DNA of 64,000 bases from positions 454,810 to 518,809 of the IMG/VR virus record IMGVR_UViG_3300014205_000170. The stretch is one strand, 5' to 3'. Below are positions 4,048 through 62,689 of the stretch, in pieces. The stretch's first letter is position 1. Each line of letters opens with the position of its first letter. The translations under genes were made by a program, and so were the position numbers. Below the pieces are notes generated by a model. It ran no database searches, was not told the origin of the DNA, and saw nothing but the letters and a program-made list of their open reading frames with translations. This DNA is from a virus. Taxonomy: Duplodnaviria > Caudoviricetes.

Positions 4048-4120
4048 GTTGATGTAGCATATTGCGAATGCGTCGCCCTGAACAAGCGAAGAGTAACAGG
4101 TTCAATTCCTTTCGTCAACA
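4048..4120 (+). tRNA. atypical tRNA-Phe(GAA)
   Basis: GTTGATG/CGTCAAC acceptor, GCAT/ATGC D-stem, loop CTGAACA, T-loop TTCAATT; C31.A39 mismatch, bulged T-stem, no encoded CCA. Confidence 0.75.
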
Positions 4121-4125
4121 CAAAC

Positions 4126-4205
4126 GTGGATGTAGCTTATAATACATTAAAGTGCTGGCCTGAAAAACCAGAGAATGGTAAGTTTGTATCTTCCCATCCA
4201 CACCA
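4126..4205 (+). tRNA. atypical tRNA-Phe(GAA)
   Basis: GTGGATG/CATCCAC acceptor plus ACCA, loop CTGAAAA; C31.A39 mismatch, bulged T-stem, deviant T-loop TTTGTAT. Confidence 0.7.
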
Positions 4206-4216
4206 ATTAAGAATAT

Positions 4217-4313
4217 GGCAAGGTAGCTCAGTGGTGGTTCTCTGCAAAGAGAATCTTTAAGAGCAATGCCCTGAAAAAGCATGAGTCGGAGTGTTCGATT
4301 CCTCCTCTTGCCA
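4217..4313 (+). tRNA. atypical tRNA-Phe(GAA) with an extra hairpin in the D-loop
   Basis: GGCAAGG/TCTTGCC acceptor; GCTC/GAGC D-stem enclosing GGTTCTCT-GCAA-AGAGAATC; loop CTGAAAA; T-loop TTCGATT. Confidence 0.75.
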
Positions 4314-20811: not shown

Positions 20812-21173
20812 GGGTTCGACCGGTTTTGACAGTGAGCGCAATTTAAAAATAAGCATGTAGTGTGTTGTGAATATGACACTTTAATCTTAACTCTCAAATT
20901 TTATCTGGCGAAACTTTCGCTATGGCTGCTTAATAAACTCAGTTTATTTCAGTCGTTGTAAGCCTTATAGCACTCTTGCTTCGCGATAAGTGTCTTGCAT
21001 TATAAAAGAGCAAGTTATTTTAGTGATGATATTAACTAAAATAATAAAAATATCTAAGTTGAAATTTGGTTTGATTTTATGCCTGGTTTTAATCGAAAAT
21101 TAAATAAATTCTAAACATGTAGAAGGTTTTTAAATTCCTTATTTGGACGAGGGTTCGAATCCCTCCGAATCCA
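20812..21173 (+). ncRNA. ssrA: tmRNA (one-piece), tag (A)GETFAMAA
   Basis: GGGTTCG/CGAATCC acceptor with G3.U70; ACCGGTTTTGAC 5' motif; tag ORF 20907-20933; 3' GGAC-GAGGG TTCGAAT CCCTC; no encoded CCA. Confidence 0.93.
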
Positions 21174-21184
21174 CAAATTGATTG

Positions 21185-21211: not shown

Positions 21212-23557
21212 TTATTCAAACGGTTCTATAATATGCCAACCTATTTTTGAAGTATCAGAGGCGCTATTAGAACCAATAATAAATGATGTTCCAGCTGTTC
21301 TTCCAGAGATGAAAGGAATTCCCATAAATCCACTACCATCTGGAATTTGTATTGATAACATAATAAGCGATGCGTTTGTTACTGCTGTTGTAGTAACTAC
21401 CACGAATCCAGATGCTAATGTAGCTAATCCGGCTGTTGGACTTGTACCGGTGAATGCAAAAGTTTTATTTCTAACATATAGGTTTGGTACATATACAGAA
21501 TCATCTGTTGATGCAGTAAGAGCCCTACCTCCAATTATAGCACTTCTATTTGTTGAAGATGGAATTACGTTATTTGCACCTCCTATGATTGTAGACCATG
21601 ACCCAGAAAGTGTATGTCCAGTTCCATTAACAATAGTAGAATGACGACCCTGTACAGTATTGTTAAAACCATTAATAATTGTTGAGCCTGTATTATTCGC
21701 TGTATTACCACTACCGTTACCAATTAATGAGAATAATCCTGAACTAGTATTGTTAAATCCATTTAAAACAGTAGAATAAGCAGAAGTACCGCTTGTAACG
21801 GAGTTATAAACTCCATTGTTTATGGTGGAAAAATTACCTGTAACAGAATTGGACCTACCATTTATAATAGCAGCATATGTTCCTGATGTTGTATTTCCAC
21901 TACCATTACCAATTAAACTTTTAGTTCCATTAGTAGTATTTTGTCTACCATTTAATATTGTAGAATAAAATGTTCCAGCCGAATTTGATATACCATTTTC
22001 AATGGTTGTATAAGAGCCAACAGTGGTATTGCCTGAACCATTTAAAATAACAGAACTTATTCCGGACGAACTATTTCTTCTACCATTTAAGGCTGCTGAA
22101 TAAGTTGATATACTTGAATTTAAAAAACCGTTTCCTACAAATGATTTACCACCAGTAGCTGTGTTTCCAGAACCATTTACAATAGTAGCATATGATGATG
22201 TTATTGCTGAATTATTTCTACCATTAACAACGGTAGACATTGTTTGATTTGCTAAATTTCTATAACCATTACCAACAAATGTTCTTGCAGCAGAAGCTGT
22301 ATTATAAACACCATTTATAATAGTAGCATAAGAACCGGTAGAAGCTGAATTTTTAAAACCATTACCAATAAATGCTCCAACAAAATTTGATTTATTTTGA
22401 TAACCATTTATAACAGTTGCATAATTATGTGTTAATGTTATGTTTCCAAATCCAGCACCAATAAATCCAGACCTAGAATCAGTTGTGTTTCCTGTACCTC
22501 CTCCTATAAATGCAGTAATACCTGATGAAGTGTTTTTTATACCACCAACAACAATAGAACCTAGCAAATGAGAAGTGTTTCCAGAACCACCTACAACTAC
22601 ACCATATGCATTGTTTACTGTATTTAATTTACCTGCACCAATAAATGAATATTGCGCAGTAATAGAATTCCCTTTACCATTAACAATAGCAGAGCTAAAT
22701 GCTCCGGTTGAAGCGGTGTTGGCATGTCCACCTACACTAGAGTGATTTCCATCTGCCACACTGTTATATCCATTTCCTATAAAAGAATAATTTCCTGATG
22801 CAATGTTTTTTTGTCCATTTACAATCGAAGAATAGTTTCCAGTAATAGCTGAATTTAATAACCCTCCTCCAACAAAAGAATGTTGTCCTGAAGCTAAATT
22901 TCCATTTCCTGCTCCTATAAATGTATAGTAATAAGAAGAACGATTATTAATACCAGCACCTACAAAAGCAGCATATCCAGAAGAATGATTTTGTTTACCT
23001 CCAACAATCGTAGAATAATCTGTTGTTGCGGAATTTTGATAACCATTTCCTATAATAGAATTACTACCATTAGCTAAGTTATATTGTCCGCCAACAACAA
23101 TAGCTCCTGTAGTTGTTGCAGAATTATAGTTACCATTAAGAATTGCTGTAAATTGTTGTGTTGCTTTATTACTGCTTCCATTTCCAATAAATGACCTAAT
23201 TCCATTTGCTTTATTTCCGTAACCTCCAACAACAGCAGCAAAATTACTTGTTGCTACGTTTTGGGCACCATTCCCAATAAAAGAATAAGTAGATGTTGTT
23301 GCAGAGTTGCCTTTACCTCCTACGATAGAAAAAATTCCAGTTGCTAAGTTTCCACTGTTGTTATTTGCTATAATGGAATCTGAACCAGTAGATGAACTCC
23401 ATAAACCTGCTGTAGTAGCACTTAAGGCATCTTGAATTAATACTCCTTGCAAAGCAGTTCCTCCAGAATTCATTTGTATGAATTGATTGGCAGATAAGCC
23501 ACCAAAATCATGGTCTGTAGACCCTGTAAATGGATGTTTTTGAAAGTGAGTACTCAT
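21212..23557 (-). CDS. Gly/Asn/Ser-rich beta-roll repeat protein, putative fibre or adhesin
   Basis: dozens of about 15-aa repeats of type S[FT]I[GV][GN]GxxNxAxG; upstream TATTTA motif. Confidence 0.75.
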   Translation of the reverse strand: MSTHFQKHPFTGSTDHDFGGLSANQFIQMNSGGTALQGVLIQDALSATTAGLWSSSTGSDSIIANNNSGNLATGIFSIVGGKGNSATTSTYSFIGNGAQNVATSNFAAVVGGYGNKANGIRSFIGNGSSNKATQQFTAILNGNYNSATTTGAIVVGGQYNLANGSNSIIGNGYQNSATTDYSTIVGGKQNHSSGYAAFVGAGINNRSSYYYTFIGAGNGNLASGQHSFVGGGLLNSAITGNYSSIVNGQKNIASGNYSFIGNGYNSVADGNHSSVGGHANTASTGAFSSAIVNGKGNSITAQYSFIGAGKLNTVNNAYGVVVGGSGNTSHLLGSIVVGGIKNTSSGITAFIGGGTGNTTDSRSGFIGAGFGNITLTHNYATVINGYQNKSNFVGAFIGNGFKNSASTGSYATIINGVYNTASAARTFVGNGYRNLANQTMSTVVNGRNNSAITSSYATIVNGSGNTATGGKSFVGNGFLNSSISTYSAALNGRRNSSSGISSVILNGSGNTTVGSYTTIENGISNSAGTFYSTILNGRQNTTNGTKSLIGNGSGNTTSGTYAAIINGRSNSVTGNFSTINNGVYNSVTSGTSAYSTVLNGFNNTSSGLFSLIGNGSGNTANNTGSTIINGFNNTVQGRHSTIVNGTGHTLSGSWSTIIGGANNVIPSSTNRSAIIGGRALTASTDDSVYVPNLYVRNKTFAFTGTSPTAGLATLASGFVVVTTTAVTNASLIMLSIQIPDGSGFMGIPFISGRTAGTSFIIGSNSASDTSKIGWHIIEPFE

Positions 23558-25660: not shown

Positions 25661-26158
25661 ATGAATAAAAAAATAGAAATAAAAATTCTAGCGGTATCAG
25701 GCCAATCGTTATTAACTAAATTCATGCAAGCAGCTGATGTGTTTGAAGACAGTAAAGTTCTTGGCACTCCAAAAATTTTAATTGTGAAATACAAAGCCGG
25801 AGAAAAAATTTCCACAAAAAGAGCTGCTGATTTAATTAACTTTATAAAACAATCTTTAGAAAAAAATGAGGAGATTGTATCTTTTATTCATATTCTTGAA
25901 ATACAAGAAGGAAAAAAAATACGAAAAAATAAAGGAGAACTTGCACCTTTTGTGAACAAAGATGTACGTTGTATTTCAGATGGGAAAAAGTGGGGCTTAC
26001 TTTCGAAATACATTGAACTGAATACAAATTTAAAAGTTATTACTGATGAAAATATGTTCATTACTTCTGTTGGATTTCATTTGAATGATTTAAAATTAGA
26101 AACATCAAAGATTTATTCAGAAGATTTAACAAAAAATAAGTTTTACATTAATAAATAA
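25661..26158 (+). CDS. hypothetical protein
   Basis: 165-aa ORF. Confidence 0.6.
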   Translation: MNKKIEIKILAVSGQSLLTKFMQAADVFEDSKVLGTPKILIVKYKAGEKISTKRAADLINFIKQSLEKNEEIVSFIHILEIQEGKKIRKNKGELAPFVNKDVRCISDGKKWGLLSKYIELNTNLKVITDENMFITSVGFHLNDLKLETSKIYSEDLTKNKFYINK

Positions 26159-26187
26159 TTTGCGTATATTTACAAAAAACAATTATT

Positions 26188-26550
26188 ATGAAATAGATTA
26201 ATAAACTTTACATTATTACAAGGCGCGACTTAAATCCTGGAAGTCAAGCAGTTCAATCCATTCATTCGTTGCATGAATTCGAAAAGCAACAAAAATCACA
26301 TTACGAACTCTGGTATCACAATTCTAAAACGATAGTATTTCTATCTGTTGAATCTATTGCTGAACTAGAAAAATTAAGAGAAAATCTTCTTGGTAATAAA
26401 ATACCCTTTGCTGGCTTTAGAGAACCTGATTTAAACAATCAACTTACATCTTTATGTATCATCTCAACCAACAAAACAAAACAGCTGTGTAAAAACCTAC
26501 CATTAGCTTTATCTGAATTTTCTTTAAAAGAAAGGGGGGCACATGTTTGA
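26188..26550 (+). CDS. peptidyl-tRNA hydrolase PTH2-like protein with an in-frame TAG at codon 3
   Basis: MK*INKLYIITRRDLNPGSQAVQSIHS...TIVFLSV...FREPDLNNQLTSL; the ORF-track start at 26269 omits the conserved N-terminal strand. Confidence 0.75.
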
Positions 26551-27172
26551 ATATGTGGCTTATAAATTAGGGGGGACCATTCCTTATCCGGTTACGAAAA
26601 TTATCTGGAGAGATAAAGAACAATTGGTTTTTTTTGATGGTCAATTTTACAATATAGATGAATGTATTCTTTGTGCTGATACCGGCTTAACTATAAAAGG
26701 AAAGCGCATTTATGAAGGAGATATTCTTCAATTAGATATCCCAGATTCTTCTTGTTATTGTAAAGGGAAAATTGGTATTGTTTTTTTTCATCGTGGTCAA
26801 TTTTGTTGGGAAGCAGTAGATGGTTGGAGAACCTATTCTTTATATGGAAAAAACTGGAAAAAATTAGGTAATATTGCATGTGACGTTGAACGAATTTTTA
26901 CTCTTGAACAAAGAGGCAATTCATTAATAAGGAAAGTTGCTGAGAAAAAAAAGGGCGCTTATTATGGAGTTCTATTGGAAAAAACTCTAAAACAATTTAA
27001 ACCTACACAAGGAGAAGAAATAAGCGATTTAGAAGTGCAGTCAAAAAAAGCACAAAAAAAATTACTCTTTGAATATGCCAATTATTTAAAGATTAAAAAG
27101 CTAATTGAGGGTAATAAAATTTATCCAGATATTGTGGAAAAAAATCTTACATTTGTAACAGATTCTGAATAA
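26543..27172 (+). CDS. YopX-like protein
   Basis: DTGLTIKGKRIYEGDIL...GIVFF..GQF...LGNI. Confidence 0.65.
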   Translation: MFEYVAYKLGGTIPYPVTKIIWRDKEQLVFFDGQFYNIDECILCADTGLTIKGKRIYEGDILQLDIPDSSCYCKGKIGIVFFHRGQFCWEAVDGWRTYSLYGKNWKKLGNIACDVERIFTLEQRGNSLIRKVAEKKKGAYYGVLLEKTLKQFKPTQGEEISDLEVQSKKAQKKLLFEYANYLKIKKLIEGNKIYPDIVEKNLTFVTDSE

Positions 27173-27188
27173 AATCGTTTAATATTAC

Positions 27189-28532
27189 ATGGGTAATGCT
27201 AAATATACAAATGAACAAATTGAAGAAGAAAAGTATCGTCAAAAACTTATTGAGTCGATGCCTAAACTTCCCACAAATGGTCAATTATATCTATCTCTTC
27301 CAAAAACATTAAGACAATTATCAAAAGAAAATTACACTATTTCAGATGCAGCCAAATGCAGTAAAGAACTAAAATCGCTCATTAATCCTTTGTTGATTCA
27401 GGGAACTAATGGTCAATTTTGTGTAAAAGATAAAACTGAAAGAGAAAAAATCACAATAGCTCTTGCACATTTAGATAAGATTAAAAGTCACAGAATGATG
27501 GAGGAATATTATGAAAGTATTTCCAAAATCCTAACTATGAATTTGTTTTGGATTCAAGAAATCACTACATGGGAATGGAAAAGTAGAAATACTTACAAAC
27601 AATTAAAATCTCTTGTAGAACATTTGTTTTGTGAGTATGAAGTTCCGGAATTTTTATTTCAATCATGGACAGACAAAACACACAATTATAAACATGTGGA
27701 TTGGTTTTTACATATTGCCTCTGGTTTAAGTGCTAAAAAATTATATCAATTTCCAATTAAGGCTACAAATAAGATGTTGCACGAATTTATTAATACACCA
27801 TTTCCTGGATATTCAATAGATGATGCAGTAAGACGCGCTCAAGTAATCGGGTTAGGAGGAGATGAAAGATTAGCTAATGCTATTTTAATGTCTCGCTTAC
27901 GACATAACTTTCAAAATAATGAATTTTGGACAACTGTAATTCACTTTTTTATTGGTATACCAATGTTGAATATTGATGAAGTTGGAACTATTATTGATTT
28001 TATAAATGAAAAGAAGTTTGTTGCCAAACATGTAATTGTTAATGGAAAAAGGTTATATCAACCCGAAATGCCAAATTTTACAATAAAAGGAAGAAATATT
28101 CAAACTTTAATAGATGACACTCATGCTTGGCACCGCGAACTTAGAAAGCATAATAAAGCAGATATGTCTGCAGAATGGCTAGGAACCGGCATGGAACCAT
28201 TTGTCCTTGAAGAAGGAATTAAGGATAAGAAAAGCTTTAAACTTTATGAAGTAGTTGAAATAACTTCTGCAAAAGAACTTCATAAAGAAGGCTCTACTAT
28301 GCATCATTGTGTTTTTTCTTATCTTAGTTCTTGCATTAAAGGAACATGTTTTATTTTTTCTTTAAGATTATTTGGAGCCAGTTTAGTAACAATAGAGGTT
28401 AGAGAAAATAGAGCTGTTCAAATTCGAGGAGAATATAATAAAAGACCTGACCAAAAAGCATTAAGTATTATAAATGCATGGGCTAACAAAGAAAACATAC
28501 AAATTACTAGCTATGCAATAGGTGGTAGATAA
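27189..28532 (+). CDS. PcfJ domain protein
   Basis: HLFCEYEVPEFL, FTIKGR, ELHKEGSTMHHCVFSY, VTIEV..QIRGEYN. Confidence 0.8.
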   Translation: MGNAKYTNEQIEEEKYRQKLIESMPKLPTNGQLYLSLPKTLRQLSKENYTISDAAKCSKELKSLINPLLIQGTNGQFCVKDKTEREKITIALAHLDKIKSHRMMEEYYESISKILTMNLFWIQEITTWEWKSRNTYKQLKSLVEHLFCEYEVPEFLFQSWTDKTHNYKHVDWFLHIASGLSAKKLYQFPIKATNKMLHEFINTPFPGYSIDDAVRRAQVIGLGGDERLANAILMSRLRHNFQNNEFWTTVIHFFIGIPMLNIDEVGTIIDFINEKKFVAKHVIVNGKRLYQPEMPNFTIKGRNIQTLIDDTHAWHRELRKHNKADMSAEWLGTGMEPFVLEEGIKDKKSFKLYEVVEITSAKELHKEGSTMHHCVFSYLSSCIKGTCFIFSLRLFGASLVTIEVRENRAVQIRGEYNKRPDQKALSIINAWANKENIQITSYAIGGR

Positions 28533-28535
28533 AAT

Positions 28536-28602
28536 GCCCCACATGGTGCGTTATGGGTGCCCTAACATCTAATGACGGTCGGTTCGAACCCGACATGGGG
28601 CA
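28536..28602 (+). ncRNA. tRNA-like RNA lacking a D-stem
   Basis: GCCCCA/TGGGGC acceptor-like stem; perfect T-arm GTCGG TTCGAAC CCGAC; one central long stem with loop CCCTAA. Confidence 0.6.
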
Positions 28603-62616: not shown

Positions 62617-62674
62617 GGCGTATTAGCTAAGTGGTATAGCAGCAAAGTCGGGTGTTCGATTCACTCATACGCTA
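62617..62674 (+). ncRNA. tRNA-like RNA with no anticodon arm
   Basis: GGCGTAT/ATACGCT-A acceptor; D-arm GCTA AGTGGTA TAGC; only AGCAAAGTC before the T-arm GGGTG TTCGATT CACTC. Confidence 0.75.
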
Positions 62675-62689
62675 CAAATAAATTAAACA

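Follow-up and report, generated by a model that had tools for sequence, protein, structure and literature searches.

A programmed early stop codon in a Pth2-like gene family of phages, and a candidate suppressor tRNA partner

In phages that use genetic code 15, such as the crAss-like and Lak phages, phage-encoded suppressor transfer RNAs (tRNAs) with the anticodon CUA read in-frame UAG codons, and can thereby gate the expression of genes (PMC9523058, PMC7886860, PMC13037316). A dependence on termination efficiency is also known from prfB, encoding release factor 2 (RF2), which is autoregulated through an early in-frame stop codon passed by a +1 frameshift (PMC13245932). CUA tRNAs have furthermore been reported, without a target, in the standard-code jumbo phages XacN1 (PMC5852040) and RsoM2USA (PMC8504454). 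Here we describe an in-frame amber codon at the start of a gene for a protein with the fold of peptidyl-tRNA hydrolase 2 (Pth2), found in a 64,000 nt stretch of DNA (IMG/VR record IMGVR_UViG_3300014205_000170, positions 454,810 to 518,809; hereafter the window) that is the final 64 kb of a complete 518,809 bp phage genome. On comparative sequence data, we put the probability that in this gene family the stop is read through by a phage suppressor tRNA at about 0.8; it is also likely, if a little less so, that this copy of the gated gene reports the amount of active suppressor tRNA relative to release factor 1 (RF1). The features that carry this reading are as follows.

26188..26196 (+): start codon, one Lys codon and an in-frame amber (the gate, TAG at 26194-26196), conserved in orthologues and distant homologues
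26188..26550 (+): Pth2-fold protein gene, 120 codons with the amber read through, from PF01981, an AlphaFold model, Foldseek and residue comparison
28536..28602 (+): D-armless tRNA-like gene of 67 nt, from a T-arm scan and covariance model R1

The locus resembles the code 15 phages in that a phage CUA tRNA would be needed to translate an in-frame UAG; unlike those phages, in which many genes are recoded, the genome uses code 11, a single family is gated, no release factor gene is present, and the stop and anticodon can switch together to UGA or UAA. As in prfB, an early in-frame stop is found in a translation-related gene whose output would depend on the efficiency of termination; however, the frame here continues in phase, a dedicated tRNA apparently bypasses the stop, and the product has a PTH2 fold rather than being a release factor. 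Selenocysteine and pyrrolysine decoding similarly employ a dedicated tRNA at an in-frame stop in selected genes, but in the present family there is no fixed residue at the stop, the type and position of which vary, and the tRNAs have no common identity. The lambda bar minigene is a stand-alone two-codon open reading frame (ORF) with a specific last sense codon, whereas here a conserved protein frame follows and 22 different last codons are used. The orphan amber tRNAs of XacN1 and RsoM2USA, and the tRNA-Pyl calls in cluster C mycobacteriophages, are likewise CUA tRNAs in code 11 phages; in the present case a target is proposed. In RsoM2USA (MG752970) an unannotated homologue has UAG as its third codon and a Shine-Dalgarno site at good spacing; Tenacibaculum phage pT24 (LC168164) shares the start of the window gene and has a CUA-tRNA-like pattern match around 2.5 kb upstream. 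The homologue found in XacN1 is a C-terminal fusion without the stop, hence the gate does not explain every orphan CUA tRNA. No description of the gate was found in the literature searched, the coverage of which leaves out most subscription journals.

The gated gene runs in one frame from ATG (26188) through AAA (26191), TAG (26194-26196) and ATT (26197), then 117 open codons, to TGA (26548-26550). A first-pass annotation, made by a model from the letters alone, had placed ATG-AAA-TAG in frame with a Pth2-like motif, and this was confirmed; the first canonical start 3' of the TAG is a TTG at 26269, past the first strand and within the first helix. None of the eight closest database proteins has been called with its N terminus; in the DNA of each, an ATG and a few codons lead to a stop at the equivalent position, TAG in six cases and TGA in two. 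Syntenic orthologues from independent samples, at 50-67% amino acid identity, all have a stop there, as do homologues at around 35-46% identity; in distant database proteins an apparent Gln at the gate is a TAG translated under code 15. The DNA-level comparison that had been suggested as a check was made on 162 homologues, non-redundant at 90% identity and drawn from viral and metagenome scans of a family of around 1,700 clusters at E 1e-10. An early stop, at codon 3-8, is found in 91 of them (85 TAG, three TAA and three TGA), a proportion that is not a family-wide estimate, as the searches were seeded with gated members; nine others have a TAG only in mid-gene, 59 have no stop and three are unclear. 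Sequencing error and recent nonsense mutation were both rejected, because all the syntenic orthologues and also distant homologues keep the stop, which, judged from these alignments, is a real, programmed and family-wide feature.

Stop codon and neighbouring anticodon change together. A CUA tRNA lies within the flank, of a few kilobases, of 62 of the 85 early-TAG genes, and others were found for the window gene and six more by direct inspection or a wider look; those still without one mostly have short flanks. Within the window clade (99 by the Shimodaira-Hasegawa-like approximate likelihood ratio test, SH-aLRT, in a quick tree of few columns) the two TGA genes form one branch. A CUA counterpart is present at the same or a nearby place in the TAG orthologues L003, L004, L008 and L011, and a UCA counterpart in the TGA orthologues L015 and L016. 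Elsewhere, L094 has a TGA at codon 8 with a UCA tRNA a few kilobases away, L228 a TAA with a UUA tRNA, and L058 a TAA with a UUA tRNA 19 kb distant in a 98% complete genome. Matching switches are therefore seen in four separate lineages, two of TGA with UCA and two of TAA with UUA, and cover all non-TAG early stops except that of L156.

A CUA or UUA tRNA also follows immediately after many stop-less homologues, including those of cultured cluster C mycobacteriophages; hence the partnership of protein and tRNA does not depend on the gate. An apparent match between terminal stop and anticodon in stop-less genes was discarded as largely due to mid-gene TAGs. The TCA and TTA calls that a relaxed scanner made in TAG loci look for the most part like Leu or Lys tRNAs read in the wrong register, and were left out of the counts; some tRNA pattern matches proved to be Arg tRNAs. 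In the mycobacteriophages IkeLoa (L324, around 2974-2982) and Myrna (L290), a start codon and TAG directly precede the annotated GTG start of the homologue, with a CUA tRNA downstream; the Shine-Dalgarno spacing of these loci favours the second start, and they may preserve a vestige of the gate. In a GC-rich clade of stop-less homologues (L191, L194, L203, L212, L263, L271 and relatives) the anticodon loop of a nearby tRNA is even-numbered and contains TCA; in these genomes, with TGA as the main stop, this tRNA may be a different, non-standard decoder. A small basic helical protein of no known family (e.g. L194:2091-2483) is encoded beside the module in 69 of 158 loci, and is sometimes fused to the Pth2-like domain; it is absent from this genome, and so is not an obligatory part.

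The tRNA-like gene of the window begins three bases after the stop codon of pcfJ, around 2 kb downstream of the gated gene, and was overlooked by the first-pass annotation. Neither ARAGORN nor Rfam RF00005 gives a CUA tRNA in this genome, the element at 28536-28602 being invisible to both; the resulting conclusion that the genome had no suppressor tRNA was overturned by a scan for T arms outside the called tRNAs and by covariance model R1. This model, built from five D-armless homologues with the window copy excluded, ranks the window element top in the genome at 45.3 bits, the runner-up scoring 28.7. The acceptor stem has six of seven pairs, the T arm is perfect, there is no D arm, and a hairpin of around 11 bp carries CUA (28562-28564) at its tip; the discriminator is A and CCA is not encoded. 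It thus agrees with a tRNA in acceptor stem, T arm and discriminator. In the five homologues 88.8% of cells are paired, where slid controls reach 31-50%, and 14 of the 20 pairs show two-sided changes; the test is partly circular in that the structure was drawn from the same five sequences. Orthologues L003, L008, L015 and L016 have regular 7-nt anticodon loops. Mitochondrial tRNA-Ser(AGY) also lacks a D arm and has a lengthened anticodon stem with intact acceptor and T arms; unlike it, the window element is phage-encoded, has a stop anticodon and would have to work on a bacterial ribosome.

Other unusual genes of this kind are found in the genome. One at 62617-62677 (+) of the window has acceptor, D and T arms and no anticodon arm; three odd Phe(GAA)-like tRNAs at 4048-4313 (+) have 4-bp anticodon stems, one of them with a hairpin inserted in the D loop; and further tRNA-like genes, at C1 37497, 191250, 419546 and 430875, have long or scrambled anticodon arms. 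A phage-encoded transfer-messenger RNA at 20812-21176 (+) of the window (Rfam RF00023, 104.7 bits) is missed by ARAGORN at default settings.

The manner in which the stop is passed is indicated by three observations. Thirteen genes, four of which also have an early stop, contain a TAG inside an intact folded domain, at nine different and mostly variable positions where close homologues carry Glu, Ser, Ala or Gln; because the domain is intact on both sides, reinitiation cannot explain these TAGs. In 17 of 19 genes the Shine-Dalgarno motif is 5-8 nt from the upstream ATG, its distance to the codon that follows the stop being 14-22 nt. Immediately 3' of the early stop, 90 of 91 genes have a purine, compared with a domain background of 56%, and a purine after UAG is reported to favour amber suppression in E. 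coli (PMC6266110). Together, these patterns favour tRNA readthrough over reinitiation, and readthrough with a suppressor present, one of the possibilities raised by the first-pass annotation, is the best reading of a stop that has a CUA tRNA nearby and switches with its anticodon.

TAG otherwise behaves as an ordinary stop in this genome, as had been noted from a few instances in the window: of 584 long ORFs, 38 end in it. Reading TAG or TGA as sense takes the coding density from 0.833 (code 11) to 0.845 or 0.834, respectively. Around 36,900 homology-covered codons in the neighbour genes of gated loci contain five TAG, three TGA and three TAA, mostly off-frame noise, and the neighbours of genes with mid-gene TAGs have none in 1,952 such codons. 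Hence genome-wide recoding of TAG (code 15) was rejected, as coding density is not raised convincingly and neighbour genes are almost without in-frame stops; TAG terminates around 8% of the neighbour genes of gated loci. There was no clear signal of backup stops after the TAG-ending genes (median five codons for TAG and TGA, eight for TAA). A Shine-Dalgarno motif precedes only 23 of the 473 ATG genes, and A occupies -3 in 63%, a combination that suggests a Bacteroidota host. An RF-1 family gene is absent from this genome and from four of five related genomes. A gene of that family in L340 (G005 C1 39135-39461, -) has a frame that opens after a stop without an obvious ATG, in a genome that also has a gated gene and two CUA tRNAs. 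A conserved neighbour gene in L255 (around 2869) has an apparent in-frame TAG where its homologue has Trp, and is a possible second gated gene; screening other gene families at the DNA level for the start motif of the gate yielded 18 candidate loci.

The gated frame matches PF01981 at 24.7 bits (cut-off 23), and its AlphaFold model has a mean predicted local distance difference test (pLDDT) score of 90.4. Foldseek matched it to Pth2 structures only, archaeal and human, with a best E of 4e-7 and a template modelling (TM) score of around 0.7. It therefore shares the fold of Pth2 (PF01981; PDB 2zv3, 1wn2, 3erj, 1xty, 1q7s) and of phage PTH2 (PMC7824862), from which it differs in the absence of the catalytic Lys and of DAGxT. 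Against the NCBIfam Pth2 model it scores 22 bits, the cut-off being 126. In M. jannaschii Pth2, K18 is the catalytic Lys, and D86 and T90 belong to the DAGxT motif. The catalytic Lys aligns with Ser19 of the gated protein, and this position is Tyr, Gln or Ser, and never Lys, in the 162 homologues, such that the active Pth2 assumed by the first-pass annotation finds no support; EPD replaces DAGxT in 148 of them, the window protein included. The Gly, Gln and His of the first helix are kept, as is a late Thr. The protein resembles the PTRHD1-like branch, which is not known to have an established hydrolase activity. A second Pth2, canonical and with both motifs intact, is encoded elsewhere in the genome (C1 107094-107498, L001), and L342 is likewise canonical; genes for an HD-domain protein, a MazG-like protein and two class I aminoacyl-tRNA synthetase-like proteins lie nearby. 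Hydrolase activity of the gated protein is unproven, given the missing catalytic Lys and the canonical copy, and on the model and alignments it is a Pth2-fold protein, probably a specialised one.

Three further features adjoin the gated gene.

26142..26173 (+): promoter-like site (-35 and -10 hexamers separated by a 17-nt spacer) around 15 nt 5' of the ATG; a 10/12 consensus match, of a kind frequent by chance in this AT-rich region
26543..27172 (+): YopX-family gene, the start of which overlaps the Pth2-like stop by 8 nt (Pfam PF09643)
27189..28532 (+): PcfJ-like gene (Pfam PF14284), 3' of the gated gene and 5' of the tRNA-like gene; syntenic in orthologues

The -10 region is kept in all orthologues, several of which have a TTGAC -35, and we infer that 26142..26173 may function as a promoter. 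The 8-nt overlap is present in all orthologous loci, making translational coupling of yopX to the Pth2-like gene possible; more speculatively, the overlap could extend the gate to downstream genes, the tRNA itself included. A GNAT acetyltransferase gene lies directly upstream (around 100 nt) of the TGA-gated copy (L016-L018); tRNA-acetylating GNATs are countered by Pth. On the other strand of the window, 21212-23557 (-) encodes a 781-aa repeat protein, rich in Gly, Asn and Ser, that resembles a phage fibre or adhesin.

In the proposed mechanism, translation would begin at ATG 26188 and run into UAG at codon 3, where host RF1 would normally terminate it. A stop-reading tRNA of the phage, in this genome the D-armless CUA tRNA that closes the gene run, would sometimes win and insert an amino acid; the Pth2-like protein would be made only after such readthrough, the overlapping yopX may follow, and output would track the active suppressor tRNA relative to RF1. 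A further step, to which we give somewhat less than an even chance, is a negative feedback with the logic of prfB, in which the protein would bind the acceptor/T half of the tRNA, remove aminoacyl or short peptidyl groups, and hold suppression low. Suppression must stay low, because the ochre-tRNA phage ends most of its genes (13 of 16 sampled) in TAA and there is no clear sign of backup stops after TAG here; a limiter produced in step with suppression would hold it down. The tRNAs beside stop-less homologues, and the canonical Pth2 that the genome already has, also speak for this feedback. An alternative role for the protein is that of a helper recycling dropped-off peptidyl-tRNA(CUA), which sequence does not separate from the feedback or release-factor roles. 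More broadly, the tRNA and the remodelled Pth2-fold protein could be a co-evolving pair controlling one stop during infection, acting as a self-limiting suppressor or as an RNA-based release or rescue factor, with a swappable stop-anticodon lock on the gene of the pair itself and, in this clade, a tRNA that serves bacterial ribosomes despite having no D arm; taken as a whole, this joint proposal is less likely than not.

Were the pair a release factor made of RNA, which we consider improbable, the stop-reading tRNA and the Pth2-like protein would jointly bring about termination or rescue there, with the tRNA taking the nascent chain, dropping off and being recycled, whilst the internal stop would follow the prfB logic, more protein being made when the system fails. 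Such a role would fit the tRNAs beside stop-less copies, the occurrence of all three stop anticodons, the ochre tRNA in a phage mostly ending its genes in TAA, the lack of any other amber target seen in this genome or in XacN1 (PMC5852040), and the RF-1 family gene missing here and from four of the five relatives. However, the tRNA usually matches the rarest stop (TAG, at around 8% of neighbour gene ends), the purine at +4 favours suppression, and the catalytic Lys is absent. A charged tRNA, moreover, normally continues elongation. Less credible still is reinitiation at a non-canonical codon right after the stop, the minigene delivering ribosomes to an AUU or GUU start, which the first-pass annotation had offered, at ATT, as an alternative to readthrough. 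An Ile or Val codon does follow 79 of 90 early stops (ATT in 52), the residue after the stop aligns with the initiator Met of some stop-less homologues, and in cluster C mycobacteriophages a TAG directly precedes an annotated GTG start; but this leaves the mid-gene TAGs and the co-switching of the anticodon unexplained, AAC, AGC, GGC, GGG or AAA follow several early stops, the Shine-Dalgarno spacing fits the upstream ATG, and Ile occupies that position in stop-less homologues with longer N termini too. Lower still stands the idea, also put forward by the first-pass annotation, of a lambda-bar-like minigene sensing a build-up of peptidyl-tRNA-Lys or a shortage of Pth; a Lys-tRNA hopping over the stop is ranked with it. 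The leaders, of 2-7 codons, are mostly of 2-4, the minigene range in which drop-off occurs, but the codon before the early stop is of 22 kinds and encodes Lys in only 32 of 90 genes, AAA is merely the commonest second codon in this genome, and neither the downstream protein, the mid-gene stops nor the tRNA is accounted for. Ribosome hopping is likewise unsupported, as a matching landing codon is present in only 50 of 90 and the preceding codon is not conserved.

Several points weigh against tRNA readthrough itself, and the most direct concern the window tRNA. That it is a UAG-decoding, aminoacylated, D-armless tRNA active on a bacterial ribosome is a prediction; its 7-nt-loop register has two mismatches at the top and is 4.8 kcal/mol costlier than a 6-nt loop, its position 33 is C, seen in five of 108 family tRNAs, and with so irregular an anticodon arm it may work poorly. 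These same traits, together with the missing D arm, are what would be expected if the gate were real in the family and the window tRNA no longer decoded, leaving the gene to low near-cognate readthrough or to loss. We regard such decay as having only a small chance of being correct: both the acceptor stem and the T stem remain intact, and compensatory changes are seen throughout the clade; every TAG lineage with sequence at that offset has CUA, the TGA lineages having UCA; and nothing interrupts the downstream frame, which retains every family invariant. The CUA tRNAs of the family also share no clear synthetase identity (discriminator A in 61, G in 30, T in 10), and a U at +5, in 81 of 91 early stops and 11 of 13 mid-gene stops, is strongly enriched, with no explanation offered. 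No convincing second amber-gated gene was found in this genome, other candidates having their own start codon downstream. Homologues share descent, such that the counts overstate independent events, and the seeding of the searches and the quick tree count on the same side.

Readthrough by a phage suppressor tRNA nevertheless provides a specific proposed target for the suppressor tRNAs of standard-code jumbo phages, and the joint change of stop and anticodon serves as a natural genetic control. Gene callers shorten, drop or mistranslate a widespread phage gene, giving it no N terminus or rendering TAG as Gln, and standard tRNA finders miss the partner when it has no D arm, an oversight that may lie behind seemingly orphan cases. 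If the feedback loop is true, the module would be a natural sensor of suppression, useful for genetic-code expansion, and a possible intermediate towards fully recoded phages.
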